Shown here: positions 6,335 to 26,864 of the stretch, in pieces
How positions within the stretch are numbered: position 1 is the first letter of the stretch
Layout of the letters: the number at the start of each line of letters is the position of its first letter
Assembly (NCBI GenBank): GCA_029861845.1
Contig: JAOTYM010000001.1
Location: forward strand, 16,137 to 80,136
Direction of reading: 5' to 3'
DNA length: 64,000 nt
Source: Gammaproteobacteria bacterium
GTDB taxonomy: Bacteria; Pseudomonadota; Gammaproteobacteria; Acidiferrobacterales; SPGG2
The notes under the pieces: model-generated
What the model saw: only the letters and a program-made list of their open reading frames with translations
The model's database searches: none
Told to the model about the DNA's origin: nothing
Position numbers and translations under genes: made by a program

Positions 6335-6354
6335 CGTTCTCTCCTGTTGTTAAC

Positions 6355-6999: not shown

Positions 7000-7053
7000 T
7001 CTCGGTCGCAAACGAAAAGGGGCTTGCCCCAGTAGGCAAACCCTTGTTTTAAA

Positions 7054-7970: not shown

Positions 7971-8045
7971 CGGAGAACGGTTCAATGAACGAAGGCCACA
8001 CCACACAAAAAGTAGGGGTAGCAAACCACTAGTTTTGGTGGGCCG

Positions 8046-8209
8046 TGCTGGAATCGAACCAGCGACCCTCTGATTAAAAGGCGGATGCTCAAACGTTGTG
8101 TTTCAATAACTTAAGTGCGAATTGCCAAATATTTCGCTGAGTTTGTACTTCGTTTTGAATCAAATCGTTAGGTTTTATTTGGCAGCGGATATTTGGCAGT
8201 TCCCTATTT
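8046..8209 (-). repeat. Junction module copy B: 45-nt tRNA-Lys 3' half plus conserved arm
   Basis: Differs from copy C (21907-22070) at about 4 positions by eye. Shares an extra 'agcaaaccactagtttt' immediately to the left with copy C. Confidence 0.85.
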
Positions 8210-8244
8210 TAGAAACAGACTAGAAACATGTAAGCTAGAAACAC

Positions 8245-10761: not shown

Positions 10762-11683
10762 GGCTATGTCTCCTCTCTCAAAGTACGGATAGCGTGGAAC
10801 GCGTACGCACTAGATGTTGTGCCAAAGGGCTTGGCAACCTTTCGAGAAGTATTGCGGTGTCTTATTAAACTATGATCGTCGTCCTCCGCTTCTTTTGCGA
10901 TTCCGACCGAAATCCGGGCCAGAATGCGGTGGTGGAATGGCGCCACCGCCCTCGTAGAGGCGCCCATTACTTCAGGCTCTCTGAATACTCTTCCCGCAGC
11001 ACGCTGTCATTGATTTACAGCAATTATCAAAAAAAATTGCGAATGACTTAATACTGATCGAAGGTACTGCTCGAGGCAATGACTTGAGCCGGAGGCGACG
11101 GCTCACATCCGAACGGAGTGCTGAGTCGTTTGTATTTCGGTTGTCCCAGGATCGAAACATTTTGATGCTGTAGATAGTCATTCAGAAGATTGTAAGAGCG
11201 AAACTACCTTCGACATGGTGGATGTCCGGATAAGAATCTAAACCAGTCCTTCAGACGCAATAGATCCGACATGGCTGAATGACGGGTCATGGCCGACTGC
11301 CGCCTCTACCAACCAGCGAATCAGCGTTGTTTGAGCGGCTGCTTCCTGCTGCGAAGCGGCCCTGGATGTTAGCCAACACCAACAGGCAGCTGGCGACCCT
11401 GAGGAGCCATTCCCATCGTCCTTACTAGGCTCGAAGAATATGAAGAAGCAGACGTTCGAGAAGATAATTTCTCAGTCGGCGAATACCGACAATTGACATG
11501 CGTTGGCCAGATGAATACCGACGTCGCCGCGGGCGCGGGAGTAGGCCAGCGGGATAGGTGTCGCACATGGTTGTGGCTACATTGCACCGTGGCCTGCAAA
11601 CCCTGACGAAGAGGCGCTACGTAGCGAGCAGGGGGCTTCGCCCCCTACACCCCCACAAAGGGTAAAAGGACAAGAACAAGCGG

Positions 11684-13051
11684 TCACAGGTCCTGGGCAA
11701 GACGAAAACCCACGCCGGTGGTCCCGCCCTCCGCGTTGGACATTTGGCGGTTCGCCGAACGAATGTGATCCGGTATGTCGACCCAGGAGCCGCCCCGGAT
11801 TACACGCTGGTCACAATCACCACCGTCTTCCCCTAGCCAGGCGCGGCCGTCATCCGGCGCGTTCTTGTAGTCCGCGTGCCAACAGTCTTCCACCCACTCC
11901 GACACATTGCCATGCACCTCGTGCAAGCCCCAAGGGTTCTCAGGCAGGCTACCAACCGGCACGGTCTGTTTCCGGTATTGCCCCCTGGGACTGCCCGCGT
12001 AGGAAAGGGTCGCGGCGTAGTTCACCTGCTTGTCGGTGATGAGGCCCTCGAAGCTGAACGGACCTTTCGTACCAGCTCGCGCCGCGAACTCCCATTCCGC
12101 TTCGCTCGGCAAGCGATAGCGCTTGCCCGTCTGTTCCGACAACCACGCGCAATAGGCTTGGGCATCGTCCCAGGACACGTCGATGACCGGTCGGTTGCCG
12201 CGACCCCAACCCGCGTCCGCCGGCGCCTCGCGCTCCGTCGCCTCGACAAACCGGTCGTACTCTTCGAAGGTCACCGCGTACTTCCCGATGGCAAACGGGT
12301 ACGCAAATACGACCTCGTGTTGCGGAATCTCGTTCCAGTTGCGGCATAGTTCATCTTCAGGTGAGCCCATCGTGAACTTGCCGGCGGGAATCACCACCAT
12401 CTCGGGCCCAAAGAAACCGTCCTTGAGTGTGTCGCGGAATACGGTGCCCGGGGGCGGCGCTTGCTCTGCGACCTCGTCTGCCTCCACAGCTTTAACCTGG
12501 ATGCCTAGGTTCTTCTCAATCCCCCTTATGAGTCGCCCCACATCTGAATCAAACGTAGGCTTCGGACGAATCGGCGTGCCGTTACGAAGTGCAAGTTCCC
12601 TCAAAGACTTAGGTAACTTATTCGCTGGGGGTATTGCGGCATTGCCCACAAGCAAGGGTATAACGGGAATTTCTCGCTTCAGCGCCGACTCTATTTCGAG
12701 ACGGACAAAATCTCCAGGCTGCTGAAGTCGCGGACGGTCACCATCATCGGTCACACTCAGCCATTTTTCACCAATAACCGCCAGAAAGATGTCACATTTG
12801 CCCACTTGTTCATCAATGTAGTCTTTGAAATTCACACCCAGCGGTATCGAGTCGATATCCGTGAAGATGGCGTCTGAACCAAAATGTCTAGCGAGTCGAT
12901 CTTGGATGAGGTCGACGGCCCACTCGCTGTCCTCGCGGCGATAGGAAATGAATATACCGTTCACTGGCTCTCTTAACCGATTGTTCGGGATGTTGTGAAC
13001 ACTTCGATAGTGAACTCTATCATTTCTCCCGCTGAGCAAGATAACCCCCAC
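11684..13051 (-). CDS. TIR domain - FGE-sulfatase (SUMF1/FGS) domain fusion protein
   Basis: 455-aa ORF. The N-terminal half has the TIR_2 pattern 'IFISYRREDSEWA...CDIFLAVIGEKWL...VRLEIESALKREIPVIPLLV'. The C-terminal half has FGE-sulfatase hallmarks 'GKFTMGSP...LPSEAEWEFAARAG...HGNVSEWVEDCW...RVIRGGSW...GFRLAQD'. Confidence 0.8.
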   Translation of the reverse strand: MGVILLSGRNDRVHYRSVHNIPNNRLREPVNGIFISYRREDSEWAVDLIQDRLARHFGSDAIFTDIDSIPLGVNFKDYIDEQVGKCDIFLAVIGEKWLSVTDDGDRPRLQQPGDFVRLEIESALKREIPVIPLLVGNAAIPPANKLPKSLRELALRNGTPIRPKPTFDSDVGRLIRGIEKNLGIQVKAVEADEVAEQAPPPGTVFRDTLKDGFFGPEMVVIPAGKFTMGSPEDELCRNWNEIPQHEVVFAYPFAIGKYAVTFEEYDRFVEATEREAPADAGWGRGNRPVIDVSWDDAQAYCAWLSEQTGKRYRLPSEAEWEFAARAGTKGPFSFEGLITDKQVNYAATLSYAGSPRGQYRKQTVPVGSLPENPWGLHEVHGNVSEWVEDCWHADYKNAPDDGRAWLGEDGGDCDQRVIRGGSWVDIPDHIRSANRQMSNAEGGTTGVGFRLAQDL

Positions 13052-13290
13052 TGTAATGTGTTGATTTTCTGGCCCGCTGTCAGCGAGCTACGGAATGACC
13101 GGTCTTGGGAGCTACAACTGGTACCACGACCGGTCGGTTTTGGCCGTTCTCTGCCTACCACGATGTCGATTTCATAGTCGATTGACTGGCTGCTCCAACC
13201 CTGAGAGCTGCTGGTCAAGTGATAGAATTTCGACCGGCGGAGAACGACCCGAAGCTGCCTTAATGAATAGAACGTAGGGGAAGAAGAACC

Positions 13291-13848
13291 ATGACCACCA
13301 TAACGAGTCGGCTTCCATCAGAGTCAGACGAGCTCTGGAAAATACGCGAATTGGAAGCGCAGAATTTGCTGGCGCTCCAAAACCGGTTGATGGTGGAAGA
13401 AAGAGACATGATTGGATGGCTCTGCACCGTTCATAGGAACAAAGTTGATTACCCAAACGCAAAGCCGGAGGACGTCAAAAGAATCCAGGAGCAACTGAAT
13501 AAGGCGAGCAATTTGATCTCACTCACGTACATCTGGGCGCTGCTCGATGAAGGTGGATTCGATGAACACTGCAAGTGGGTTTCAGCCGAAGAAAGGCTTG
13601 AGCTGAAGGCATGGAAACACGTCAGACATACGGGAGCGCACGCGCCTGGAAGTAGGGCGAAGCGTTATTCTAAAGAATTCGAGGATTTCATGACGAATAG
13701 AAACGGTCCGTCGGGGCTGAAACAGAATTGTCAGTGGACAAAATCGTCAATCGACTTGAAAGACGGTATGAATATGCAGTTTTTCCTATGGGTTCAGGAG
13801 ATGGTTAAGAAAGCACTCGGCCACTGTGCAAATGGAAATGTACCATAA
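13291..13848 (+). CDS. Small helical protein with Rx4H motif (possible HEPN-like RNase)
   Basis: 185-aa ORF divergent from the TIR gene. Composition looks all-alpha. 'WKHVRHTGAHAPG' fits the HEPN R-x4-H (R[N]xxAH-like) signature. The call rests on the motif only. Confidence 0.35.
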   Translation: MTTITSRLPSESDELWKIRELEAQNLLALQNRLMVEERDMIGWLCTVHRNKVDYPNAKPEDVKRIQEQLNKASNLISLTYIWALLDEGGFDEHCKWVSAEERLELKAWKHVRHTGAHAPGSRAKRYSKEFEDFMTNRNGPSGLKQNCQWTKSSIDLKDGMNMQFFLWVQEMVKKALGHCANGNVP

Positions 13849-13968
13849 GAGAAATACACGAGAGTGTGATGCCGCTAGCGGCGAAAGCAGCCTATCGAGC
13901 TCGATCTGATCGGACAGGGTGTGTACGGTCAGATCTGAGTTCTCACCACTAGCAACAATTAGTATCGG

Positions 13969-15063
13969 CTAGTTGTTTCCTCCACCCTTAGCCTTAATCA
14001 CCACGACATCATGGCCCTCTATAGGCGTGCCGTCCAACAGCACTCCGATCAGCGTAAGAACGCGTACCTCACCGTCTTCTACATCACCAAGCGCCTGGAT
14101 CAACTCTTGGCTGTCGAATTTCAGCGTCAGGTCATCGAATCCATCCGGGCCGAAATCATTGCAGTCAAGCGCATCAACGAGGCCATTGGTGGGGGTGAAC
14201 GGTGTGGCTACATCCTCGATTGCAGAGCGAATGGCAGCTACGCCTTCAAGGCGCAAAGAGGCAATATCAATCTGGGTGACGTCAAGATCTGCCGTACCGA
14301 GGACGGCTACAGGGGTTACCCCTTTGCTCTTGGTGTTGAGCGGATTGGGACAGTTTTGGGGTTTGATGTCGAGCGCAACGGGTTCAAACACGGACAAAGG
14401 AATTGTTCCGGTGTAAAACTCACCGAAGTATTCGTCGTCTATGCCGCCCTCAATTTCACGGATTTCTGCGCGGTCGAAAGCCGTATCACTCCAAACGCCG
14501 ACAAACGAGATTACATCATCCGGTGCGTTGAACGTAAACGTGTCCACAGGTGTCGCGCCATCTATTAGCGTTACCATAAACGTGGAATCAACACCGAAGG
14601 GGCGGCCTTGGTTGCCATAGGGGACCGGCATCGTCACATCGGGCTCGGCGAAATCAAAGCCCATAGAAAAAACCGGGCTAGCGAAAGCCACGTCTATGTT
14701 TTCCCTCTGGTTGATGGCGATGTCATTTCCCGGCAGCGGGGCATACCAATCGCCTGTAGGGACCTGAGGTACACCGACTGCACCGATGAAGAAGCCCGAG
14801 GTTCTGTTGATGAACGTGGCACTTCCAACGGTTCGATTAGTGCTGACGCCCCCGACGTTAGGTAACGGACCTGTGGCACTGCTTGCACCTGTTGCTGCAA
14901 GGAACGCCGCCTTGTCATCAAAAGTGAGGAGCGTTGCCTGTGCTTGGATTCCAAAGCTGACTAAGGCGGTCACCGCCGCTAAAAGCACAGCCCCTGTTAC
15001 CGTGTAAGCATGTCGATGATTTGTGCCGAGTCCGTTCGGGCACTGAGATTGTTGTTTACTCAT
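13969..15063 (-). CDS. Secreted hypothetical protein
   Basis: 364-aa ORF with an N-terminal signal/anchor ('AVLLAAVTALVSFGIQAQA'). The acidic C-terminal region 'IKPQNCPNPLNTKSKGVTPVAVLGTADLDVTQIDIASLRL' is a recurring module in secreted bacterial proteins. Confidence 0.55.
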   Translation of the reverse strand: MSKQQSQCPNGLGTNHRHAYTVTGAVLLAAVTALVSFGIQAQATLLTFDDKAAFLAATGASSATGPLPNVGGVSTNRTVGSATFINRTSGFFIGAVGVPQVPTGDWYAPLPGNDIAINQRENIDVAFASPVFSMGFDFAEPDVTMPVPYGNQGRPFGVDSTFMVTLIDGATPVDTFTFNAPDDVISFVGVWSDTAFDRAEIREIEGGIDDEYFGEFYTGTIPLSVFEPVALDIKPQNCPNPLNTKSKGVTPVAVLGTADLDVTQIDIASLRLEGVAAIRSAIEDVATPFTPTNGLVDALDCNDFGPDGFDDLTLKFDSQELIQALGDVEDGEVRVLTLIGVLLDGTPIEGHDVVVIKAKGGGNN

Positions 15064-15080
15064 GTTGCCCTCCGATAGGC

Positions 15081-15120
15081 CAGATTGGTCCAGGTAGGTC
15101 CAGGTAGGTCCAGGTAGGTA
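15081..15120. repeat. Four tandem 10-bp repeats (caggtaggtc x3 plus degenerate cagattggtc)
   Basis: Read directly: 'cagattggtc caggtaggtc caggtaggtc caggtaggta'. Begins 18 nt upstream of the start codon of the 13969..15063 gene, in a divergent intergenic region. Confidence 0.9.
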
Positions 15121-15300
15121 TGTAGAGCTGTCAATACACCACTACTGGCAGGCCGCGACTTTGATATGAATCAAGGGAAAAGATCCTTTGGGCGGTATGT
15201 ATCGAATTACAGGCGCTTTTTGGGCGACGACATCACCCCGGAGCGGAGATTTACTACAATTGAGATGTTCAATATTCGTCAGCCGTATAAACGAGGAACA

Positions 15301-15936
15301 ATGGAAAGCATCAACAATGAAATTCTGAATCCTTGGGTATCAATGTGGACTAAGCCACGTGCCACTATTCAGCAAATAGTTGACACGAATCCAGAACGTT
15401 TAGTTTTGGTATTGGCAGCTATTGCTGGTTTCTCCCAGGCGTTAGATCGCGCCAGTATGAACAGTAACGGAGATACATTGGAATGGCCCACAATTTTCCT
15501 TATCGCCGCGATCGCTGGGCCGATTAGCGGGTTAATTACTTTATACATAGGTAGTGCGCTAATTCGCTGGACAGGACACTGGATGAGCGGGAATGCTTCA
15601 TCGCAGAATATACGGGCCGCAATGGCGTGGTCCAGCGTGCCGATAATTTGGGCGCTGATACTCTGGATTCCCGCGCTTATTCTATTCGGCCAAGAGTTAT
15701 TCACAACAGAGCCCCCAATTATTGATGCAACCCCTTCTTTGATTCTTATCTTTTTGGGATTTGCTGCGATTGAAATAACAATTGGAATTTGGGTAATTGT
15801 GGTATTCCTGAAATGCTTAGGGCAAGTTCAAGGTTTTTCTGCATGGAAAGCTCTTGGCAATGTATTTCTGGCCGGGCTAGTCGTCATCATTCCGATTGTA
15901 ATTATCGTTCTTGGCATAGCTGGTTTGACGCGATGA
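15301..15936 (+). CDS. Yip1-domain integral membrane protein
   Basis: The long ORF starts at 15166, but the ATG at 15301 has an RBS-like 'acgagga' and gives 'MESINNEILNPWVSMWTKPRATIQQIV' followed by five hydrophobic helices. That layout is typical of the Yip1/DUF1282 family. Confidence 0.6.
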   Translation: MESINNEILNPWVSMWTKPRATIQQIVDTNPERLVLVLAAIAGFSQALDRASMNSNGDTLEWPTIFLIAAIAGPISGLITLYIGSALIRWTGHWMSGNASSQNIRAAMAWSSVPIIWALILWIPALILFGQELFTTEPPIIDATPSLILIFLGFAAIEITIGIWVIVVFLKCLGQVQGFSAWKALGNVFLAGLVVIIPIVIIVLGIAGLTR

Positions 15937-15989
15937 CAAGAGATGTTATGCAGCGGCACTACGTCACTTATGGTTTCGCCACTGCCTGT

Positions 15990-16283
15990 GCCATCGGACT
16001 CTCCTACAATGCGGCCATAGCGATCCCGCTTTTCGTACTCAATCGTGACTTGTTTCCCCGTGACTATCGAAGCTAAGTGCTTACGAGAAGCCAGTCCATA
16101 CGCCTGCTTTCGTTCGGGCGCATCGATCCCGGCTAAACGAATCTTGTGCTGCTTGTAGTTGGCATCGAGGACGTAGAGGGTATCGCCGTCCGTAATCTTG
16201 ACAACCTTGCCGGTGAGGGTGTTGGCAAAGGCTGCTAGGGAGAGAAATAAGAGGAAGAAAAGCACAATTACACGGGCAATCAT
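15990..16283 (-). pseudogene. 3'-truncated thermonuclease (SNase) family gene
   Basis: Signal peptide plus 'LTGKVVKITDGDTLYVLDANYKQHKIRLAGIDAPERKQAYG...DRYGRIVGE' matches the SNase fold. The translation then loses all similarity, and the ORF runs 109 nt into the converging Yip1 gene. Confidence 0.6.
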
Positions 16284-16604
16284 TGCTTTATATCCCTAGA
16301 ATCATAGATTTGAATGCTTCACCAATGACATTGTAGTGCGTTAACGCTTGCTATTTCATAGCGACCGTGGTTTGCTGGGGTTGGCAGGTGCTGGACGATT
16401 AGCGCTCCTGGAAGAACCAACCCCCAAAGATTCACCTGCCGGGTAGAGCTTGCCGCTTTCTGAGGGGTCTTGCCCTCCGTCTCCCATACATACGGCTCCG
16501 TAACTCCACGGAATGTCGTCTTGGCGGGTGAGAGACAACCGAATGAGAAACAACCGAACTAAGCTAATGTCAGCCGTGTTGACCTTAATTTTCGCACAGT
16601 TGGT

Positions 16605-17000
16605 GTGATGACTGGCGCGTTAGTGCTGTTGATTGTCGTTATCGCTATCGCTGTTGCGGCGTGGCTAGGGCGGCGTCGCGCCAAAGCGCAGCGCCAGTTC
16701 CTCATTAAATTGGATCGTTTTTCTAGTAGATATCACAGCGTGCCGATAGGGTATTACCTGTATCACCACGGCAATGCCTGCGAAGCGGTCAAGAAGCTTG
16801 AGGGGAAAAGGTTCCTCTCGAAAGAGGCACCACATTTGCCACTGCCTGGTTGTGGAGCTGCACACTGTCACTGCCGATATGTTCACTTCAAAGATGGGCG
16901 GGAAGATGACCGCCGCCGCTCATACAAATCGCCACTCTTTGCCAGTACGGACCGTCGGGCCACAACTGGGCGGCGGCAGTTGCATAGTGACATGCTGTGA
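16605..17000 (+). CDS. Small membrane-anchored Cys/His/Arg-rich hypothetical protein
   Basis: 131-aa ORF. N-terminal TM helix, then 'LPGCGAAHCHCRYVHFKDGREDDRRRS'. No family recognised. Confidence 0.4.
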   Translation: MMTGALVLLIVVIAIAVAAWLGRRRAKAQRQFLIKLDRFSSRYHSVPIGYYLYHHGNACEAVKKLEGKRFLSKEAPHLPLPGCGAAHCHCRYVHFKDGREDDRRRSYKSPLFASTDRRATTGRRQLHSDML

Positions 17001-17244
17001 TACATGAGCCTTACGACGGGTGATGGATTTGCGGACGACTTAGTTTGCACTCAAGCCTGCCCGAATTGCACAACCACTAACGATAATCCCTCACCACCCG
17101 CCAGTTTGTTGTCCTTTCGCTCTATGAGGGGTCTTGCCCTCCGTTTCCGATAACTAGTTGTTGATCGTCAACCCTTCGTGCGATTGGGGAGGCTATGACA
17201 CCTCGACGCTACGACATGGGGGCATTCGATAAAGGAGGGTAACT

Positions 17245-17538
17245 ATGTACGCAAGTATACGTCGATACAAAGTCGATTCCGGTACGGAAGCTGAGATAGC
17301 GCGGCGAGCAAATGAGGGCTTTGTCCCAATTATCAGCAAAGCGTCAGGATTTGTCGCCTATTACATCGTCAACGCGGGAAACGGCATCGTGGCTTCGGTC
17401 AGTATTTTTCAAGATCAAGCCGGGGCAGACGAATCCACCGCAATGGCGGCAGCGTGGGTAAAAGAGAGCTTGGCCTCGCTTCTCCCAAACCCACCAGAGA
17501 TAACCGCCGGGGAGGTAACGACATATAAAACAGCCTAG
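17245..17538 (+). CDS. ABM/Dabb-like (dimeric alpha-beta barrel) small protein
   Basis: 97-aa ORF with RBS 'aaaggaggg'. 'MYASIRRYKV...GFVAYYIV...VASVSIFQDQAGADES' fits the ferredoxin-like ABM pattern. Confidence 0.55.
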   Translation: MYASIRRYKVDSGTEAEIARRANEGFVPIISKASGFVAYYIVNAGNGIVASVSIFQDQAGADESTAMAAAWVKESLASLLPNPPEITAGEVTTYKTA

Positions 17539-17590
17539 AAGGCTAGCACCAATGAAGACAACTATTGGCCTCAGTGTCGATGTTCATGAT

Positions 17591-17620
17591 AGGCGCGCCC
17601 CGTGCGCGCCTTTTTCTTTT
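17591..17620 (+). terminator. Rho-independent terminator after the ABM-like gene
   Basis: GC stem 'ggcgcgc'/'gcgcgcc' with loop 'cccgt', followed by 'tttttctttt'. Confidence 0.75.
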
Positions 17621-17679
17621 CAGCGCGGATCGCTACCGTGGTCACACCACTAGGAAGACAGGAGGCCCGCCATGCCCTT

Positions 17680-17836
17680 CTATCCCGGCCAAACGGATCT
17701 TGTGTTGCTGGTAGTTGTTATCGAGGACATAGAGGGTATCGCCATCCGCAATCTTGACGACCTTGCCGGTGAGGGTATCGGCCAAGGCTGGTATGAGGAG
17801 AAATACCAAGAAAAGCGTAATTACACGGACTGCCAT
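17680..17836 (-). pseudogene. 5' fragment (~52 codons) of a second thermonuclease paralogue
   Basis: 'MAVRVITLFLVFLLIPALADTLTGKVVKIADGDTLYVLDNNYQQHKIRLAGI' is collinear with the 16283 copy (~80% nt identity by eye). Similarity stops abruptly at the catalytic 'AGID' position. Confidence 0.65.
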
Positions 17837-18264
17837 TCCTTATCTCTCGAATCCTGGATTTGAAAGTCTCACAGACCATAGTGTATTTGATCGTCTGCAC
17901 ACGGGCTGGGCCACTGCTCAATTGCGGTGATGTTGGCGATTTTCTAGCGCCTGATATACACCCCCTCCCGTTTCTGCGACGCAACCCGCTGGCTGGAAAA
18001 GCCGGATGCGTTGTCTATACTGCTTAGGCCAACGCAATAAAGGCATCAAGCCACTTAAATAGGCTTCTTCTAGCCTAAATTTCCACACGGGGAGTGATCG
18101 ATCCGAATGGCGATGCGAGCGCATCGCTAGCGGCCCGCTTGTGCTAGGCGGCGCCGCACGGCGATGGGGGATAAGGGAGGCTGCACGGAGGCAGCGCACG
18201 AAGCGCAATCGGGGCTGCCGTGACCGGAACACCACGTCGGCGCCGCGATAAGGGGGTAGATAAG

Positions 18265-19878
18265 ATGTTTCTCAAATCGCTCACGCCGATATTCTTGACA
18301 CTTTTTCTCCTAGTGATATCGATCCAAGGGCCATCCGCCTGGGCGGCGAAACCGCCCGGGGGGCATCTTAATATCACTGAGGTGTTAGTAACCTTTGGCC
18401 CGCCGGATACCCTTACCATCACCGGCGAGGACTTCGATTTTGGACCTGGCCCATTGGTCGTCACCTTCGGGGATCTCGGCCCGCTCGACATCGTCAGCGC
18501 CACTGCTACGGAGATTGTGGTCAAGTGTCCGTTGACCTTGACCGGATATATGTGCCCGGAGGGTGACCGCCTGCTCACTGTCTCCATGGGCAATGGGCAA
18601 AGCCAAAACGATGAGTACGATCTGACCATCGGCGCGGTAGGCCCGCAAGGACCCCAGGGCGATAAAGGAGACAAGGGTGATCAGGGAGATAAAGGCGATA
18701 AAGGAGACAAGGGTGATCAGGGAGATAAAGGCGATAAAGGAGACAAGGGTGACACGGGAGAGCAAGGCATCCAAGGAGTGAAGGGTGACACGGGAGAGCA
18801 AGGCATCCAAGGAATGAAGGGTGACACGGGAGAGCAAGGCATCCAAGGAATGAAGGGTGACAAAGGTGACCAGGGTGAACAAGGTCCGCAGGGACCAGCG
18901 GGACCGCCAGGAGAACCGGCAGCCGTCGAACAGCGCGTCGGCGGAGGCGTGTTCGGGGGAGCAGAGATTGTGGCGATGTTTGGGGATAATTTTCCAGGCG
19001 ATAGTACTATCGAAGGGTTTGAGGGAGGTCATAGTGTGGTTGCGCTGGGCTTCGGTCTCACTGCTTCAACGGATGGAAGCGGTACAGTTCGCGCTACCCC
19101 GTTCGACGTGCAGCTGCAGCTGGACAGCAATCCCCTGATCCTGCCGCTGCAATTGGCCGCTGCTCAAGGTACGGTTATCCCCGAGGTTAAGGTATTCCTT
19201 ATTCGTAGGGATGCGGGAGAACCAGCCCCTTTTTTGGTTCTGGAGTTAGAGAACGTTTTTATCAATTCTGTGAACCTTACAGGGAGCGGCGACCCCACCA
19301 GCAGGCCTGCGGTGCAGATAGCTCTGAACTATGGCAAAGTGATCTTCACCGTCACTCCACGTCAGGCCGACGGCACACCGGGGGCAGAGATAACAGCTGC
19401 GTGGGACGTTGTCAGGAATGATGTCAACGGCTGTACGTTACCGGACCCACTGAAATACGCGACGCCGATCAATCCCGATGAGGGCCAGCAATTCGAGTTC
19501 TTAAGCTCAAGCCTTGGTTTCAGTAGCGTTGTCGACAGTACTGGCTCTGGAGCTGGAAGAACGACTTTTCAGACTGTGAACGTAACCAGGGACATAGCCA
19601 GTGAGTTGGCCATTAGTCCCTGTCTCTTCGGTGCTGCGGCCAATGGCCAGCTCCTTAACGCTGTCGAGATCAACAGGTTTACTCGTGATGAGACGGGCGA
19701 GCTATTTGGCCTGGCGTCGCGAATGCGCTTAGAGGACGCATTTATCACTAGCTACACGCTGTCCGGCAATTCGGAAACAGTGAAGTTTGCTTACAGCAAG
19801 ATTATCTGGACCGAGGAAGTGAAAGACGGCCCAAGAACAACAATAAGGTGGGACGTGATTAAGAACGAGCAATTTTGA
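18265..19878 (+). CDS. Secreted IPT/TIG - collagen-like triple-helix - tandem Hcp-like domain protein
   Basis: ATG at 18265 after 'aaggggg'. Signal peptide 'MFLKSLTPIFLTLFLLVISIQGPSAWA'. Ig-like 'LTITGEDFDFGPGPLVVTFGD...ATEIVVKCP'. 32 uninterrupted G-X-Y triplets (18631-18918). Two segments that align by eye with Hcp ('IEGFEGGHSVVALGFGL...FLVLELENVFINSVNLTGSGD..RPAVQIALNYGKVIFTV..RQADGTPG..AAWDVVRN', and '...VKFAYSKIIWTEE...IRWDVIKN'). Confidence 0.7.
   Translation: MFLKSLTPIFLTLFLLVISIQGPSAWAAKPPGGHLNITEVLVTFGPPDTLTITGEDFDFGPGPLVVTFGDLGPLDIVSATATEIVVKCPLTLTGYMCPEGDRLLTVSMGNGQSQNDEYDLTIGAVGPQGPQGDKGDKGDQGDKGDKGDKGDQGDKGDKGDKGDTGEQGIQGVKGDTGEQGIQGMKGDTGEQGIQGMKGDKGDQGEQGPQGPAGPPGEPAAVEQRVGGGVFGGAEIVAMFGDNFPGDSTIEGFEGGHSVVALGFGLTASTDGSGTVRATPFDVQLQLDSNPLILPLQLAAAQGTVIPEVKVFLIRRDAGEPAPFLVLELENVFINSVNLTGSGDPTSRPAVQIALNYGKVIFTVTPRQADGTPGAEITAAWDVVRNDVNGCTLPDPLKYATPINPDEGQQFEFLSSSLGFSSVVDSTGSGAGRTTFQTVNVTRDIASELAISPCLFGAAANGQLLNAVEINRFTRDETGELFGLASRMRLEDAFITSYTLSGNSETVKFAYSKIIWTEEVKDGPRTTIRWDVIKNEQF
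18661..18858 (+). repeat. Two families of perfect or near-perfect 36-bp tandem repeats inside the collagen-like region
   Basis: Unit 1 'gataaaggagacaagggtgatcagggagataaaggc' occurs at 18661 and 18697, with a half copy at 18733. Unit 2 'gacacgggagagcaaggcatccaagga(g/a)tgaagggt' occurs at 18751, 18787 and 18823. Confidence 0.9.
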
Positions 19879-19923
19879 TAGTGCCTAGTAACTTTCAAGT
19901 CTTGTTATAGTTAGTTGCTGCAT

Positions 19924-19954
19924 CCTCCCGTGCTGGCGGCACGGGAGGTTTTTT
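19924..19954 (+). terminator. Rho-independent terminator after the collagen/Hcp-like gene
   Basis: 10-bp stem 'cctcccgtgc'/'gcacgggagg' followed by 'tttttt'. Confidence 0.8.
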
Positions 19955-20373
19955 GTGTGGTTAGACCGTTATTGCCCCTTAGGACCGGTGGTCACAAGGG
20001 GACTACCAATGATTGACATTTCGGTTGCCATCCCGCTGAGCGTTCTGCCCAACAGACAACACGGAGAGGGAAACCACCATGCCCTTCTACCTAACCCCCG
20101 AACAAGACGACTACAACCAAATCTCCGAGCCTGTATTGCCGAAGCCTTGTACGATGTAGATTCGATTGTGGCGGACCCAGGGGCTTACACGAAAGAAGAA
20201 CTCGCAAGCCTACACAGCCAGATCTTGTCTAATCGGGAACAGGCGTGGGAGCTATTAGGTGGGAGTGAGGATCAACTCCTGTCTACGATGATGCAGATCT
20301 CGCAGGTGGTGACGCGGGAATTTACGAGGGAGAAATGAACGCTCTACCTGCGAGGTAGGCAGCCCGTCCGCGC

Positions 20374-20589
20374 CTACTCCTTTCGGCGACTTAGTTCGAG
20401 TTCTAGAAGCCTCAACTTTGTCTCAGGGATCGGCGCTGTTTGGCCCTTCGACAGCCACCCGTATACCCGTAGCTCTGACACCCTGAGGATCTTGGCTACC
20501 TCCTTGGCCGAGATCTCGTAACGCTTCATCAAGGTCCGGAGTTTTCGGAGCTTCGTTCTCGGCTTCATCAAGGTTCGCCCTCTACGCAT
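20374..20589 (-). CDS. Small HTH protein (excisionase/regulator-like), divergent from the integrase
   Basis: The C-terminal 50 aa 'YEISAKEVAKILRVSELRVYGWLSKGQ' form a helix-turn-helix. The long ORF extends to 20724, but the basic 'MRRGRTLMKPRTKLRKL' start looks more plausible. The start is uncertain. Confidence 0.5.
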   Translation of the reverse strand: MRRGRTLMKPRTKLRKLRTLMKRYEISAKEVAKILRVSELRVYGWLSKGQTAPIPETKLRLLELELSRRKE

Positions 20590-20845
20590 GGCCCCAGGAA
20601 CATCGAAAACATAGCCGCTAGGCCCCGCCAGAGCCCGCTGGGGGTGAGAAATAGCACGACCGACCCCCAAGCTATTAGCAGTATTGCAAGTCTTGCAGGA
20701 CTGCAAGTTTAGTCTAGGAATCAACCCCTGAATAGCTTATGATAAGAGGTCTTCCCAAAAGCTAATTTGGGGAAGGGCGAGCCCCGCAGGTGCGCGAACA
20801 CCTACGAGGCTCTAACCACAACGCAACCTGTATAGGAGGTGCGCC

Positions 20846-21877
20846 ATGGCTGCTGTCATCCTACCACGGCCTATTGCTGGCCAAAGTCTCTCCACTCGTG
20901 CCACCCGTAACCCGGCGAGTGTTTATCTCGCCTCGCTTCAACCTACGGGCAGACGTGCGATGGCGGGTCGTTTGAAGACCGTTGCCGAGTTACTCGGCTA
21001 CACCAACATACGTACCGTCCCCTGGCACGCGCTGCGCTATGAACACGCGACCGCGATCCGCGCCAGACTCCAGGAACTCGGCAAGGCTCCGACAACAGTG
21101 AACGCAACGCTCTACGCGCTCCGTGGTATTGCGAGGGCTGCGTTCAACCTGGGACTCATGACTGCGGAAGATTACCAGCGTTTGCGAGACGTGCGCCCGG
21201 TAAAAGGTGAGCGACTCCCAGCTGGTCGCGCTCTTTCCCGTGGAGAGATCGCCGCGCTGATGGCCGCCTGTACCCGTGATAAAGCCTCAGCCGGTATCCG
21301 CGATGCGGCGCTGATCGGCATTATGTACTGCGCCGGATTACCCCGGGCCGAAATCGTAGCCCTCGATCTACAGCACTGCACCCTTGGTGGGGACACGGCT
21401 GAGCTTAAAGTGCAAGGCAAGGGCAACAAGGAGCGGCTTGTCTATCTCGACAACGGCGCGCACGATGCGCTCGAAGACTGGTTGCGCTTGCGCGAAGACA
21501 GCTCCGGGGTGCTTTTTGTTCCGATTAACAAGGGTAGTCGTATCCAACCCCAGCGCATGACCGAGCAAGCCGTGTACAACGTACTTCGCAAACGCGCTAG
21601 GGAGGCTGGCATCAAAACCTTCTCGCCACACGATCTGCGTCGAAGTTTCATTGGAGATCTGCTCGATGCGGGGGCAGATATCGCTACCGTTCAGAAGCTC
21701 GCTGGCCATGCCAACGTGAGCACCACAGCCAAGTATGATCGGCGGGGTGAGCAGGCGAAGAAAAAGGCCGTGAAGTTGCTGCACATCCCGTACCAATCAC
21801 AAGGAGGCCACTTTGATGATCATCCCCTTTCCAGGCGCAGCAGAGCGCAAGAACTTTCATCTAGACAAAGTCCATGA
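20846..21877 (+). CDS. Tyrosine recombinase / phage-type integrase
   Basis: 343-aa ORF after RBS 'aggagg'. Catalytic pattern is present: 'GLPRAE' (Arg), 'KGNKER' (Lys), 'HDLRRSF' (His-x-x-Arg), 'LAGHANVSTTAKYDRR' (His...Tyr). Ends 29 nt from the tRNA-Lys half-site. Confidence 0.85.
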   Translation: MAAVILPRPIAGQSLSTRATRNPASVYLASLQPTGRRAMAGRLKTVAELLGYTNIRTVPWHALRYEHATAIRARLQELGKAPTTVNATLYALRGIARAAFNLGLMTAEDYQRLRDVRPVKGERLPAGRALSRGEIAALMAACTRDKASAGIRDAALIGIMYCAGLPRAEIVALDLQHCTLGGDTAELKVQGKGNKERLVYLDNGAHDALEDWLRLREDSSGVLFVPINKGSRIQPQRMTEQAVYNVLRKRAREAGIKTFSPHDLRRSFIGDLLDAGADIATVQKLAGHANVSTTAKYDRRGEQAKKKAVKLLHIPYQSQGGHFDDHPLSRRSRAQELSSRQSP

Positions 21878-21906
21878 AGGACTCAGGGTGAGCAAACCAC
21901 TAGTTT

Positions 21907-22070
21907 TGGTGGGCCGTGCTGGAATCGAACCAGCGACCCTCTGATTAAAAGGCGGATGCTCAAACGTTGTGTTTCAATACGTTAAATGCGAATTGCCAAA
22001 TATTTCGCTGAGTTTGTACTTTGTTTTGAATCAAATCGTTAGGTTTTATTTGGCAGCGGATATTTGGCAG
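21907..22070 (-). repeat. Junction module copy C: 45-nt tRNA-Lys 3' half plus conserved arm
   Basis: Near-identical to copy B. The arm carries inverted 'tgccaaatat' / 'atatttggca' motifs. Confidence 0.85.
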
Positions 22071-22237
22071 CATCACGAATAGTATTGCGTTGCCCAGCGC
22101 TACGTCTATAAGCTGACCTGATACGTCACCCCTTTTTGTGTAGTTTCAAGGCGACCACTCTCCTTCGAAACCTCGTCCCAGTGTTTTATCAACGATTGGC
22201 TAACATTGGCATGCCTTATGCACCATAGGGCCAGTTG

Positions 22238-22345
22238 TTTCGTTACAAAGGCAAACCATCCCGAAAGGGTGGGACGCAAAGCTACCTGCCTAGGGTCGAA
22301 AGACGAAGGTAGAGGGGCCGCAGGAGAAACGCCGTACTTTGCAGG
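22238..22345 (+). promoter_or_regulatory. c-di-GMP-I (GEMM-I) riboswitch-like aptamer
   Basis: 'AAAGGCAAACCAUCCCGAAAGGGUGGGACGCAAAGCUACCUGCC...GUCGAAAGAC..AGGUAGAGGGGCCGCAGG' parallels V. cholerae Vc2 'GGGCAAACCAUUCGAAAGAGUGGGACGCAAAGCCUCCGGCC...CCGGUAGGUAGCGGGG'. It has a GAAA-capped first hairpin, the conserved ACGCAAAGC junction, and a 6-bp CUACCU/AGGUAG second helix. It lies ~95 nt upstream of a c-di-GMP signalling operon. Confidence 0.7.
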
Positions 22346-22438
22346 CTTCCCCCCCCCGTCCCTCGAAAACTAGGTCAGCCAGGACTATGGTTTTAGGACT
22401 ATGGTTAATGAGCATTAACCTAATTAGGGGCGAATCCC

Positions 22439-24340
22439 ATGTCATTAAGAAATAAAGTGATTTTTATCATCGTGGCACTGTTCCTCACCTACGGTGCTTT
22501 GGATATTGGTGTTCAGCGCTTTGTCATCATGCCGAGCTTCACTGAGCTCGAGCGCGACGAAGCCACAAAAAACATGGAGCGAGCCGTCCAGGCCATGGAG
22601 CGTGAAATCGAGCACCTGGGCTTTTCAGTCAGCGACTGGGCGTTCTGGGACGACACGTATGAGTTTGTCTCCGGCACCAATCCCGAGTATGTGGAGGATA
22701 ATCTTGTCTTCACCAGCTTCACCGCCCTCAAGGTCCACCTCATGCACTTCTATAACACCGAAGGGAAGCTGGTGTGGGGGAAAAGCTTCGACCTTGAGAC
22801 GGAGGAGGAGATCGAAGTATCCGAGTTTGCCGAGGGTGCGCTGACGGTAGAGAGCGCCCTCATCACCCATAAGACAGAAGATAGTGTCGTTTCAGGGGTC
22901 TTCATGACCCAGGGTGGACCGATGCTGCTCGTATCCAAGCCTGTCTTGACGAATGAGATAAAGGGACCGCCTGCGGGCGCGATCATCATGGCGCGGTTTC
23001 TCAACGAGGCGGCCATCGACACCATCGCCGAGCAGGCTCGGGTCGACCTCGTCGTCGCCCCGCTCATGGGTGCCAACGCCATCAAGCATGATGCACTTCA
23101 GCACATTTCCGACGAGGCGCCTACCTACATCGAGCAAACTGATACCAGCTCCCGCGTCTTTACGACATTTAAGGGCGTCGACGGCAAGCCAGCGCTGTTG
23201 CTGCAGGTCGATGTCCCAAGAGAAATCAGTGCCCGCGGCGAGACCGCTGTCCGCTATGCGGTTGGTTCTCTCGCCATCGCTGGCCTCCTGGCGCTTGGGG
23301 TGCTGCTCCTGCTGCTCCAGCGCACCGTTTTCAAGCCGGTGACCCGCCTCACCAACCACGTTATTCAATTCGGAAAGAGTGACGACTTGGCGGCACGCAT
23401 AGCAATGGAGCGTGATGATGAGATTGGGACGCTCGCCCAAGAGTTCGACCGAATGGTTGAGCGGCTTGCCGACGCGCGCCGCCGGCTCATCGAACAATCC
23501 TATGAGTCAGGTGTGGCCGAGATGGCAAGTGGCGTGCTGCACAACATTGGCAACGCTCTGACCCCGGTGACGGTTCGGCTGGCAAATTTGTCGCAGACAC
23601 TGCACAAGGCACCGCTTGCCGAGGTGGACCAGGCCCATGCGGAGCTTGCTGAGGGCGCCGCACCGGCTGAGCGCCAGGCGGCTCTCAAAGAGTTTGTGAC
23701 GATGGCCGGTCAAGAGCTTGCCGAGACGGTACGCCGTACAGCTCAAGATGTGGAGGTAACCACGAGTCAGATCAGCCACATTGAACAGATTTTGGCCGAC
23801 CAAGAGAAGTTCAGTCGCGCAGAGCGCGTCCTCGAGGCCATCGACATCGATGGGCTTGTTGCGGAGTCTCTAGGCTTTGTGTCGACGACTCTCCTCGAGT
23901 CGATGTCAGTCAAACAGGATTCGGCCCTCAAAGACATGCATCCCATCGACGGCGCGCGAACACCATTACAGCAGGTGGTGGCGAATCTCATCATCAACGC
24001 GGCCGAAGCTATACAGCACATGCCTGCCGACGAAGGTCGGCTTGAGATTTCAGCCGAGGAGACACGTGTCGACGGGGATGAAATGCTCCACATTCGGTTC
24101 AAGGATAACGGTTGCGGCATTGATCCACAGAATATTGAGCGCATCTTCGAGCGTGGCTTTACGACTAAACCGTCTGGCGCCTCGGGGCTAGGGCTGCACT
24201 GGAGCGCCAACACTGTTTCGGTGATGCGCGGGAGACTTTACGCAGAAAGTGAAGGTGCGGGGCGCGGTGCCTGTCTGCATCTATTGTTACCTCTATCCTC
24301 CTCTGCCACGGGGACGTCAGTGACCGAGGTTGCGGCGTGA
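22439..24340 (+). CDS. Sensor histidine kinase with CHASE4-like periplasmic domain and HAMP
   Basis: 633-aa ORF. TM1, then a periplasmic region with 'SDWAFWDDTYEFV' (CHASE4-type, from memory), then TM2 and HAMP ('DEIGTLAQEFDRMVERL'). H-box 'SGVLHNIGNAL'. HATPase_c N/G boxes 'NLIINAAEAI', 'DNGCGI', 'GLGLH'. Confidence 0.8.
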   Translation: MSLRNKVIFIIVALFLTYGALDIGVQRFVIMPSFTELERDEATKNMERAVQAMEREIEHLGFSVSDWAFWDDTYEFVSGTNPEYVEDNLVFTSFTALKVHLMHFYNTEGKLVWGKSFDLETEEEIEVSEFAEGALTVESALITHKTEDSVVSGVFMTQGGPMLLVSKPVLTNEIKGPPAGAIIMARFLNEAAIDTIAEQARVDLVVAPLMGANAIKHDALQHISDEAPTYIEQTDTSSRVFTTFKGVDGKPALLLQVDVPREISARGETAVRYAVGSLAIAGLLALGVLLLLLQRTVFKPVTRLTNHVIQFGKSDDLAARIAMERDDEIGTLAQEFDRMVERLADARRRLIEQSYESGVAEMASGVLHNIGNALTPVTVRLANLSQTLHKAPLAEVDQAHAELAEGAAPAERQAALKEFVTMAGQELAETVRRTAQDVEVTTSQISHIEQILADQEKFSRAERVLEAIDIDGLVAESLGFVSTTLLESMSVKQDSALKDMHPIDGARTPLQQVVANLIINAAEAIQHMPADEGRLEISAEETRVDGDEMLHIRFKDNGCGIDPQNIERIFERGFTTKPSGASGLGLHWSANTVSVMRGRLYAESEGAGRGACLHLLLPLSSSATGTSVTEVAA

Positions 24341-26607
24341 CTACGCAGCCTGAGCCGCCGGCCTCACCATTACGTGTGCTTATCGCCGACGACGAGGCTG
24401 TGATTCGGGAGTCTTACCGGGACATCCTGGCGCCGAACAGTTCCAAAACACCCGCCGGCGACAAATTCGGCGCCATGAAGGCCCAGCTTTTTGGTGCGGA
24501 TACGCAACCGGCCGAGCGTCCCCAGATTGAAGTCGTTTGCTGTGAACAAGCGGAGCAGGCGGTCGACGCGGTCGTGCAAGCTCTCGCGGCGGGCCAGCCG
24601 TTCGCGGTTGCGTTTCTCGATATTCGCATGCCCCCAGGAAAGGACGGCGTGTGGGCGGCCGAGCAAATCCGGGCGCTCGACCCCGACATCGAGATTGTCA
24701 TCGTCACCGCCTACTCTGACGTCGACCCACAAGAAATCGCCGCCCGCGTACCACCAGTCGACAAGCTCTTGTACCTGCAGAAGCCCTTTCACCCCCATGA
24801 GGTTCGCCAATGTGTCTCGTCGCTCGGCGCCAAATGGCGCGGCGCGCAGTCACTTCGAAAAAACCAGGTTCGCCTCGAGACGGCACAACGCATCGCCAAA
24901 TTCGGGTACTGGGAGTTGGACCCACAAACGGGCTACGCCTGGTGGTCGCGCGAGCTGTGCAATGTGTTCGGTTTGCCGGTCGACCACTGTAGCGGACCGA
25001 TTCAAACGCTCTGGTCGCGCATCCATCCCGACGACGAGCCGCAAGTTCAGGTGGCCATCAATCGCGCAGTGCGCGAGCGCACAGCTAGGAGCCTTGAATA
25101 CCGCATAAGGGCGCCCGATGGGTCGGAGCGATATATCCGCCAGGAAGTCATAGCGACCGATGCGGAGGACAACGTCTGTCGGATGATCGGAGCGGTGCAG
25201 GACGTCACCGAACGCAAGGTAATGGAGAACCAGATTCGCCATCTTGCGTATTTTGACCAACTCACGGAGCTACCCAATCGCACCTTCCTTACGAAGCACC
25301 TCACCTACGTGCTGAGCCAGGCCAAGCGGTACGAGCGCACCGTTGCGCTGCTCTACGTCGACCTCGATAACTTTAAACGAATCAATGATACCTTCGGGCA
25401 CAGTCGCGGCGACGACCTCTTGCGAGAAGTTTCCGTGCGGCTCAAGGCTTGTGTCCGCGAGAGTGATGTCGTCACACATGCTTCCCGGCCAGAGCGCCCA
25501 TCGCCGATGGACAAAAGTGGCACTGACACGATTATCCGCTTCGGTGGTGACGAGTTTATTGTCCTGTTGAGTGAAGTGGCTCATGTGCAGGATGCGGCGC
25601 GGGTCGCTCGGCGCATTATTCGAGCCCTGGAGGTTCCCGTACGATTTGACGCCACCGACGTAGTGGTTGGCGCAAGCATCGGCATCGCGCTGTACCCAAA
25701 CGACGGCGACACCGACGAAGTATTGCTCAAGAACGCAGACGCTGCCATGTATCACGCCAAGGAAAATGGCCGTAATAACTTTCAATTCTACACGGAGACT
25801 TTAAACGCGACGGCCTTTGAGCGACTGTCGCTCGAGGCAGATCTCAGACACGCCATCGAAACAGACGAACTCATATTGCACTATCAGCCGAAGATTAGCG
25901 TAGTGGACGGTACTGTGGTGGGGGCTGAGGCCCTGGTCCGTTGGCACCACCCCGAGCTTGGCATGGTAGGCCCCGGGGAATTCATCCCGATTGCAGAGGA
26001 GACCGGTCTCATTGTCCCGTTAGGTGAGTTTGTATTGCGTACCGCCTGCAATCAGATAAAGCAATGGGAGGATGCAGGCGTTCGCATGCCAATCTCAATC
26101 AATGTGTCATTTCGTCAATTTCGCGACCAATCTCTGATTTCCCAAGCCCGCCAAGCGCTTGCGGCCACAGGCATTAGCCCACACCTTTTAGAGATTGAGT
26201 TTACCGAGAGTGCCGTCATGGAGGACACGAGGGCAAGCGATCGACTCCTCGCCGAACTCAAGGCGCTTGGTCTTTCCATCTCCCTGGACGATTTCGGAAC
26301 CGGATACTCATCCCTTAGCCGTCTCAAACGGCTACCCATTGATATCCTGAAGATTGACCAGTCCTTTGTCAGCGACTTACTGACAAGCGCAGACGACGAA
26401 GCAATCGTGACGGCCATCATCGCGATGGCGCATCACATGAAACTGACAGTTGTCGCGGAGGGAGTCGAGACGCAGGCACAACTGGACATCCTCAGCCATC
26501 ACGGGTGCGACATCATGCAGGGTTATCTCGTGAGCCCCGCGGTACCCCCAGGCGAGTTCGAAAGCCGATTTCTGAATGGTGAGTCTCAATTAGAAGTGGC
26601 CGTTTAA
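24337..26607 (+). CDS. Response regulator REC-PAS-GGDEF-EAL (c-di-GMP turnover)
   Basis: 756-aa ORF whose start overlaps the kinase stop by 4 nt. REC ('VLIADDE', 'FLDIRMPPGKDG', 'LQKPF'), PAS, 'RFGGDEF', 'EALVRW', and 'DDFGTGYSSL' are all present. Confidence 0.85.
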   Translation: MTTQPEPPASPLRVLIADDEAVIRESYRDILAPNSSKTPAGDKFGAMKAQLFGADTQPAERPQIEVVCCEQAEQAVDAVVQALAAGQPFAVAFLDIRMPPGKDGVWAAEQIRALDPDIEIVIVTAYSDVDPQEIAARVPPVDKLLYLQKPFHPHEVRQCVSSLGAKWRGAQSLRKNQVRLETAQRIAKFGYWELDPQTGYAWWSRELCNVFGLPVDHCSGPIQTLWSRIHPDDEPQVQVAINRAVRERTARSLEYRIRAPDGSERYIRQEVIATDAEDNVCRMIGAVQDVTERKVMENQIRHLAYFDQLTELPNRTFLTKHLTYVLSQAKRYERTVALLYVDLDNFKRINDTFGHSRGDDLLREVSVRLKACVRESDVVTHASRPERPSPMDKSGTDTIIRFGGDEFIVLLSEVAHVQDAARVARRIIRALEVPVRFDATDVVVGASIGIALYPNDGDTDEVLLKNADAAMYHAKENGRNNFQFYTETLNATAFERLSLEADLRHAIETDELILHYQPKISVVDGTVVGAEALVRWHHPELGMVGPGEFIPIAEETGLIVPLGEFVLRTACNQIKQWEDAGVRMPISINVSFRQFRDQSLISQARQALAATGISPHLLEIEFTESAVMEDTRASDRLLAELKALGLSISLDDFGTGYSSLSRLKRLPIDILKIDQSFVSDLLTSADDEAIVTAIIAMAHHMKLTVVAEGVETQAQLDILSHHGCDIMQGYLVSPAVPPGEFESRFLNGESQLEVAV

Positions 26608-26624
26608 TAGACGGGCAATCAGTT

Positions 26625-26741
26625 ATGCACAACCCCACTGAGCTGCTAGGGCATGATGATCCAAAGACAACAAATCGGGTTTATCGCCGGGGACCACGCA
26701 GAGTGACCCCACTCAAGCCGAAAATATTAGGCAATCGGTGA
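26625..26741 (+). pseudogene. C-terminal remnant of a tyrosine integrase next to the tRNA-Lys 3' end
   Basis: The frame reads '...ELLGHDDPKTTNRVYRRGPRRVTPLKPKILGNR*', which is the LGH...T..Y box of tyrosine recombinases. There is no upstream integrase body; the EAL gene ends at 26607. Confidence 0.6.
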
Positions 26742-26788
26742 TTTATTAGGCAGCGGTTTTTTGAAAAGACCGATAAGCTATTGATTAT

Positions 26789-26864
26789 TGGTGGGCCGTG
26801 CTGGAATCGAACCAGCGACCCTCTGATTAAAAGTCAGATGCTCTGCCAACTGAGCTAACGGCCC
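26789..26864 (-). tRNA. tRNA-Lys (anticodon UUU)
   Basis: Reverse complement 'GGGCCGTTAGCTCAGTTGGCAGAGCATCTGACTTTTAATCAGAGGGTCGCTGGTTCGATTCCAGCACGGCCCACCA'. Full cloverleaf, with anticodon stem TCTGA/TCAGA, loop CTTTTAA and an encoded CCA. Confidence 0.95.

Follow-up and report, generated by a model that had tools for sequence, protein, structure and literature searches.

An aptamer of the class I c-di-GMP riboswitches before a histidine kinase and GGDEF-EAL operon within an island segment at a tRNA-Lys gene

The stretch of DNA analyzed in this work, hereafter the window, comprises 64,000 nucleotides of contig JAOTYM010000001.1 from a gammaproteobacterium of the Acidiferrobacterales, and includes a two-gene operon encoding a histidine kinase and a response regulator with GGDEF and EAL domains. 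The leader of this operon carries a predicted aptamer of the GEMM-I class of riboswitches, which bind bis-(3'-5')-cyclic dimeric guanosine monophosphate (c-di-GMP), and the whole unit lies between an intact tRNA-Lys gene and a partial copy of the 3' part of that gene. GEMM RNAs consist of two adjacent hairpins joined by an AAA linker, with a GNRA tetraloop, such as GAAA, on the first hairpin (PMC1950547). Members of GEMM-I have been found before genes involved in the production, degradation or signalling of c-di-GMP, an association that led to the identification of the ligand (Sudarsan et al. 2008, in PMC7266159). From our analyses we consider, with a probability of roughly 0.8, that the leader contains a functional riboswitch aptamer that would control a translationally coupled operon at the level of translation, and that this unit lies in a segment bounded by attachment (att) sites.

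The product of the first gene shows Pfam matches to CHASE4 (E = 1.2e-37), HAMP and HATPase_c (E = 9e-19); its H-box reads ...GVLHNIGN..., with H368 invariant in the alignment of 24 homologues, and the N-terminus MSL..K is also conserved in homologues. The GTG start codon of the second gene overlaps the stop codon of the kinase gene by four nucleotides (GTGA, 24337-24340), and the two genes are predicted to be translationally coupled. Pfam identifies in the product of the second gene the domains EAL (4e-77), GGDEF (2e-47), PAS_3 and Response_reg. By inspection, the phospho-acceptor Asp of the receiver domain is present (...AFLDIRMP...) and the motifs GGDEF, EALVR, DDFGTGYSS, EGVE and QGY are intact, and by these motifs both the GGDEF and the EAL domains are predicted to be catalytically competent. 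Between the RESD I-site and GGDEF lie some 20 inserted residues (…VVTHASRPERPSPMDKSGTDT…; window 25450-25530, residues ~375-400 of the protein), and because they displace the I-site the Pfam GGDEF match is split into two stretches. The closest NCBIfam similarities are to the GGDEF-EAL phosphodiesterases DibA, PRK10060 and DosP, all of them below cut-off, so that the net activity of the protein, cyclase or phosphodiesterase, is not assignable from NCBIfam. The same locus is present on two independent metagenome contigs of the same species, in which the leader is 100% identical.

When the window was compared with all 4227 Rfam families (cmscan, Rfam 15), only two matches scored above the gathering score: the c-di-GMP-I aptamer (RF01051) at 22240-22325 on the forward strand, which scores 65.6 bits where the gathering score is 35, and the tRNA at 26792-26864 on the reverse strand. 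With an E-value of 1.4e-10 over all 64 kb, the RF01051 match covers the complete model (positions 1-87 of 87). Given a score so far past the gathering score, and a single match in the leader, the observation is real and far beyond chance. In a permissive Rfam scan of 21900-22500, c-di-GMP-I was the top member of its own clan, and no other RNA family was detected in this region even at E <= 1. A previous reading of this DNA from its letters only, the sequence-only reading, had proposed the aptamer on the basis of the string GGCAAACC AUCCC GAAA GGGUGGG ACGCAAAGC UACCUGCC ... GUC GAAA GAC ... AGGUAG AGGGGCC, which is indeed present at 22250-22319, and had placed it upstream of a coupled operon formed by a CHASE4 kinase and a REC-PAS-GGDEF-EAL protein. 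The Rfam and Pfam matches and the GTGA overlap bear out this assignment; the distance that it gave, ~95 nt, has to be corrected, given that the start codon of the kinase gene (22439) lies 113 nt past the end of the Rfam match and 107 nt past P1. The aptamer is on the same strand as the kinase gene and in a 5' regulatory position, as is the case for 297 of 309 annotated GEMM elements (PMC1950547). A leader peptide or another small open reading frame between the aptamer and the start codon was also considered and discarded, since the search of this interval for open reading frames returned nothing credible or significant.

The region 22236-22331 is, judged by its sequence and predicted fold, a true aptamer of the class I c-di-GMP riboswitches with the helices P1, P2 and P3 (Table 1). 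In the Vc2 aptamer the ligand is contacted by G20, A47 and C92 (PMC5888326), and position 20 determines ligand selectivity (PMC9262584). The equivalent of G20 is a G in our sequence, which rules out the variant GEMM-Ib, specific for cyclic GMP-AMP (cGAMP); since the ligand-contact nucleotides are conserved and position 20 is a G, the ligand is predicted to be c-di-GMP and not cGAMP. The tetraloop-receptor position reads CCUAGG...CGAAGG, a variant of the 11-nt motif for which the model consensus is CUAAgg...AuGac, and the variant is common to the relatives of this aptamer (CCUAGG...CGACGG). These relatives come from a pattern scan of metagenome contigs that returned 13 loci, with RF01051 matches in 10 of them. 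In the alignment of the 10 related aptamers, 85.9% of the cells at paired positions are paired, compared with 35-52% when the partners are slid, and in P2 the value reaches 96.7%; nine pairs are changed on both sides, and the covariation score, which reflects compensatory changes in P2 and in the inner part of P3, was reached by none of 500 shuffles. The support for P1 comes from inspection of each sequence and is not part of these statistics: complementarity is kept with other sequences in the loci L087 (UGUUUU/AGAGCA), L085 (CCUGU/ACAGG) and L092 (GUGUU/GACAC), and P1 is present in the minimum free energy (MFE) structure of the transcript ending at position 22331.

Table 1. Coordinates of the features of the leader, the operon and the island segments in the window.
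Feature	Position	Strand	Basis or remarks
P1, 5' strand (UGUUUC)	22236-22241	+	complementary to GAAACG 22326-22331
P1, 3' strand (GAAACG)	22326-22331	+	partner of UGUUUC 22236-22241
c-di-GMP-I (GEMM-I) aptamer	22240-22325	+	RF01051; covariation in P2 and inner P3
P2	22251-22277	+	model alignment; GAAA tetraloop at 22263-22266
AAA linker	22278-22280	+	reads ...GACGC-AAA-GC..., joins P2 and P3
P3	22280-22319	+	model alignment
Ligand-contact equivalents	G22250 (Vc2 G20), A22278 (A47), C22321 (C92)	+	model alignment
Promoter-like element, weak and hypothetical (TTGCGT, 16-nt spacer, TATAAG)	22087-22114	+	aligns with TTGACC-N17-TATATA
C-rich tract: nine C (22349-22357) and anti-Shine-Dalgarno CGUCCCU(C) (22357-22363/4)	22349-22364	+	folding
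Tandem repeat, AGGACTATGGTT twice, exact, 14-nt period	22381-22392 and 22395-22406	+	duplication spans 22381-22408
18-nt palindrome GGTTAATGAGCATTAACC	22403-22420	+	overlaps the tandem repeat, just upstream of the Shine-Dalgarno candidate
Shine-Dalgarno candidate AGGGGCG	22426-22432	+	6 nt ahead of ATG 22439
CHASE4-HAMP-HATPase_c histidine kinase, 633 aa	22439-24340	+	Pfam
REC-PAS-GGDEF-EAL response regulator, 756 aa	24337-26607	+	Pfam
Putative, unproven remnant of a tyrosine recombinase C-terminus (…ELLGHDDPKTTNRVYRRG…)	26622-26741	+	motif-level resemblance
tRNA-Lys(UUU), intact, right boundary	26789-26864	-	ARAGORN; Rfam tRNA, 76 bits
56-nt copy of tRNA-Lys 3' part (att repeat), left boundary	21906-21961	-	54/56 identical to 26788-26843
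109-nt island arm	21962-22070	.	common to 8091-8199 and 984-1092
Segment A	21962-26788		4.9 kb, tRNA-proximal; riboswitch operon is the sole cargo; no intact integrase
Segment B	8061-21905		middle; intact tyrosine integrase, Hcp-collagen protein, TIR/FGE-sulfatase protein, other genes
Tyrosine integrase, intact	20846-21877	+	Pfam Phage_integrase, 1.7e-32; ends 29 nt from the att repeat
Segment C	954-8035		methyltransferase, NmrA-like and TetR genes

No intrinsic terminator was found between the aptamer and the start codon. The folding check proposed in the sequence-only reading, for a terminator or a sequestrator, thus left the first without a candidate, and for the second it gave a predicted masking of the Shine-Dalgarno (SD) sequence that does not rise above shuffled controls, as described below. 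In ViennaRNA predictions, CGUCCCU (22357-22363) pairs with the SD with a probability of ~0.7 in the free ensemble, and of 0.95-0.98 when the aptamer is enforced. When transcripts of increasing length were folded, the MFE structure of the RNA ending at 22331 was the aptamer including P1; for transcripts ending between 22380 and 22425 it was a long hairpin formed by the 3' half of the aptamer and the C-rich tract, including the anti-SD; and once the SD was transcribed, the SD-masked form was ahead by ~2 kcal/mol. Enforcing the alternative hairpin costs ~2 kcal/mol and raises the probability that the SD is unpaired from 0.16 to 0.44-0.50. A similar arrangement is predicted in four relatives with unrelated platforms, where a pyrimidine-rich tract pairs with the 3' strand of the aptamer with a probability of ~1. 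The homopolymer of nine C at 22349-22357 is potentially slippage-prone, and its length is constant across the three copies that are available.

From these predictions we infer that control would act on translation initiation, possibly with secondary effects of Rho. The C-rich tract would pair either with the SD or with the G-rich strand on the 3' side of P3. In the absence of ligand, the nascent RNA would fold the 3' half of the aptamer and the C-rich tract into the long hairpin, which would leave the SD more accessible; binding of c-di-GMP would lock P1-P3, so that the C-rich tract would be free to mask the SD. At high c-di-GMP less kinase and less GGDEF-EAL enzyme would then be made, and the leader would operate as a kinetic translational OFF switch similar to Vc2, for which translational OFF control has been reported (PMC11705072). 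According to this model OFF is somewhat more likely than ON, with the qualification that the direction is not backed by shuffle tests. A feedback loop through c-di-GMP, as had been put forward from the letters only, is reasonable, and its sign would hang on whether the switch is ON or OFF and on whether the enzyme is a cyclase or a phosphodiesterase.

Several observations weigh against this interpretation of the leader. The duplex between the aptamer and the C-rich tract has a predicted energy of -26.3 kcal/mol compared with -22.3 ± 3.2 kcal/mol for dinucleotide shuffles, 111 of 1000 of which were as good, and for the duplex between the platform and the SD the values are -12.7 and -14.7 ± 2.6 kcal/mol, with 788 of 1000 shuffles as good; given that neither pairing is better than its shuffles, the mechanism is presented here as an inference. 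For the full-length leader the predictions have most of the SD masked whether the aptamer is enforced or left free, and because of this the thermodynamic contrast of the switch is small. When the aptamer was blocked, the effect on SD accessibility was inconsistent among the relatives, and since all three available copies carry an identical leader, covariation of the platform is unavailable. A scan with the sigma-70 consensus called no promoter in the leader, 22087-22114 included, a site which aligns with a TTGACC-N17-TATATA sequence located upstream of the related aptamers in L090 and L088. Finally, the repeat and the palindrome at 22381-22420, which have no further copies in the window, may serve as an operator for a protein or as a second promoter region, or may have arisen by simple duplication, and in the first two cases they could belong to a control element independent of the riboswitch.

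The alternative that best survives these observations accepts a functional aptamer and assigns it a different output, either an ON switch like that of Vc1 or a control exerted primarily by Rho-dependent termination, in which ligand binding would make the C-rich, G-poor tract 22346-22371 accessible to Rho as a loading site, or withdraw it. Near-identical GEMM-I aptamers may be ON or OFF, as exemplified by Vc1 (ON) and Vc2 (PMC11705072), and Cd1 and pilM offer a further contrast of this kind (PMC9262584). The masking of the SD in the full-length MFE structure in both states and the lack of an intrinsic terminator fit this alternative, and so does the predicted release of the C-run, which pairs with the GGGG of P3 in the ligand-free MFE structure and is liberated when the aptamer is enforced; moreover, the relatives have pyrimidine-rich, G-poor tracts of 50-60 nt past the aptamer. 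On the other hand, the C-rich tract of our leader, at only ~20-25 nt, is short to serve as a rut site, an enforced aptamer results in more masking of the SD, not less, and the co-transcriptional series favours a ligand-free fold with the SD free. All these folding arguments are predictions without statistical support, and we regard an ON or a Rho-dependent output as rather unlikely.

The histories of the aptamer and of the operon were examined separately. Homologues of the kinase number in the hundreds at 35-51% identity, with a single one at 84% (L003), and a REC-GGDEF-EAL gene follows the kinase gene in at least 30 of the 54 loci examined. Pattern scans detected the GEMM core in none of 80 homologous genome loci, the 19 best loci gave no Rfam riboswitch match at the gathering score, and in L003 no riboswitch was found even at E <= 10. 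The L003 operon lies between unrelated genes, in a different context, and it resembles the window only from ~22415 on, about 25 nt before the ATG. The 785-nt intergenic region upstream of the L003 operon (2099-2884) has no Rfam match. The aptamers closest to that of the window are those of L088 (1678-1763, reverse strand), L090 (672-757, forward strand; three differences from the window aptamer) and L094 (6005-6090, reverse strand), which are ~97% identical to it over the 96-nt P1-P2-P3 module and precede genes for prepilin-type, PilW-like proteins; their upstream and downstream flanks are unrelated to those of the window. Homologous operons that are riboswitch-free, together with closest aptamers that lie before pilin-like genes, indicate separate histories for the leader and the operon. 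This pattern suggests a lineage-specific aptamer subfamily that would have been reused before different operons, and the riboswitch appears to have been joined to an otherwise widespread operon in this lineage only. The cassette would thus have been assembled locally, not inherited whole from a known source, and the proposal of the sequence-only reading that it was acquired as a self-contained unit is not borne out by these comparisons.

The tRNA-Lys gene lies downstream of ybgF-pal-tolB, as identified by Pfam, and this operon reads towards it. The 25-nt 3' end of the tRNA occurs in four copies in the window (929-953, 8036-8060, 21907-21931 and 26789-26813). Alignment of the three partial att copies revealed near-identity over 165 nt, composed of the tRNA part and the 109-nt arm, followed by unrelated sequence, and in all of them the arm sits on the tRNA-proximal side. 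The four tRNA 3' ends and the shared 165 nt delimit three tandem att-bounded elements, a signature of elements that would have accreted in tandem at a single attB. A second tRNA-Lys gene at 21906 was ruled out, as the 5' 20 nt are replaced there by the island arm. Only segment B, in the middle, includes an intact integrase, for which the NCBIfam similarity is to Xer-like proteins and below cut-off; segment A lies beside the tRNA without an integrase of its own.

Two further genes of segment B deserve a description. The gene at 18220-19878 (forward strand) codes for collagen triple-helix repeats fused to an Hcp domain of the type VI secretion system, and 9-nt DNA repeats underlie its sequence. 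Its product has 552 aa in the window, whereas contig L001 (1863-3440), which matches otherwise, encodes 525 aa, and the number of repeats thus varies between samples. The gene at 11684-13051 (reverse strand) encodes a TIR domain fused to an FGE-sulfatase (SUMF1-like) domain, and it is possibly a defence or NADase-type gene.

The sequence-only reading had also described the operon as island cargo placed between a junction repeat and an integrase remnant. The first part is largely supported by the sequence, given that the 56-nt tRNA repeat and the 109-nt arm at the end of the segment, the latter common to the other two segments, back it. The second part is not supported. The remnant meant is presumably 26622-26741, the product of which shows a weak likeness to the catalytic C-terminus of the neighbouring integrase in a pairwise BLASTP comparison (E = 0.015), in a window-wide tblastn it falls among chance matches (E = 1.7), Pfam, PHROGs and PDB gave no support, and tblastn against plasmids returned nothing relevant; the intact integrase, as mentioned, is outside the segment. 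It could be argued that the operon is native chromosomal DNA and that rearrangements among the islands next to it gave rise to the tRNA-derived repeat. The integrase-free segment with its non-significant remnant would agree with this idea, as would its GC content (0.51-0.60), which is not distinct from that of the window, and the failure to find an empty-site relative, for which a search with the exact Pal protein recovered the same two contigs only. A native origin nonetheless seems improbable to us, because the left end of the segment carries the same repeat and arm as the ends of two other segments, the copy at 21906 lacks the 5' part of the tRNA and is not a second tRNA gene, and the closest homologous operon is found in a different chromosomal context.

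The ~97% identity of the module in the midst of wholly unrelated flanks leads to a more specific scenario, in which the 96-nt module would have been copied recently from the leader of a pilus gene of the same lineage onto a widespread, otherwise riboswitch-free operon in an integrase-less segment that the integrase next door could mobilise. We consider this scenario doubtful; if true, the shuffling of a riboswitch module would have been caught in the act, giving rise to a transferable c-di-GMP autoregulatory circuit.

Least probable of all the explanations for the leader is that the aptamer is a mere passenger, a relic of the recombination that made the leader, and that expression of the operon depends on a promoter or operator located within 22381-22438: the lack of a riboswitch on any inspected homologous operon, the unrelated leader of the 84% homologue, with homology only from ~22415, and the 14-nt tandem duplication and 18-nt palindrome directly upstream of the SD would be expected from it, but the aptamer is intact, at 65.6 bits and with P1 and all ligand-contact positions kept, it lies on the correct strand, separated from the start codon by 107 nt that hold neither terminator nor open reading frame, GEMM elements are 5' regulatory in nearly all annotated cases, and no promoter-like site was found in that region.

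Taking the leader as a functional riboswitch, one of its closest known counterparts is Vc2, from the 5' untranslated region of tfoY in Vibrio cholerae. Both are gammaproteobacterial GEMM-I RNAs with P1-P2-P3, a GAAA tetraloop and the same nucleotides at the G20, A47 and C92 positions, and both lack a terminator and have the ribosome-binding site far from the aptamer. In contrast with Vc2, the downstream genes encode here a kinase and a GGDEF-EAL enzyme, the sequence of the platform is unrelated, the receptor is CCUAGG...GAAGG instead of CCUAAG...UAUGG, and the direction of control, reported as OFF for Vc2, is only predicted. As in the GEMM-I set of Sudarsan et al. 2008, the aptamer precedes genes acting on its own ligand; it differs from that set in that these genes form a kinase and response-regulator pair, with an input by phosphorylation layered on top, and in that the unit makes up the entire cargo of an island segment delimited by att sites. 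With respect to the aptamers of L088, L090 and L094, the identity is confined to the 96-nt module, whereas flanks, promoter regions and platforms are unrelated and the genes that follow theirs are type IV pilin-like.

Tandemly accreted tRNA islands, among them tRNA-Lys islands, are well known, and integrase-less cis-mobilisable elements (CIMEs) occur beside integrative and conjugative elements (ICEs), for instance in the ICESt/CIME arrays of Streptococcus. The organization of the window is reminiscent of such arrays in the direct repeats of the tRNA 3' end, the tandem elements, and the presence of an integrase-less element beside an integrase-bearing one. It differs from them in that the 4.9 kb of segment A, a putatively mobile element, showed no genes for conjugation or excision; furthermore, a search of a collection of viral contigs did not return the att arm or this island family.

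The riboswitch described here is an ordinary further example of the well-known GEMM-I kind, and what is known of GEMM-I is unchanged by it. It represents a clean example of a c-di-GMP riboswitch placed before an enzyme that acts on the ligand of the riboswitch, with the input of a kinase on top, and the wiring is specific to the lineage, given that the homologous operons are riboswitch-free and the nearest aptamers lie before pilin-like genes. The locus is of use for annotation, and it is a candidate for the study of how new operons acquire riboswitch modules and how small islands linked to tRNA genes carry them.

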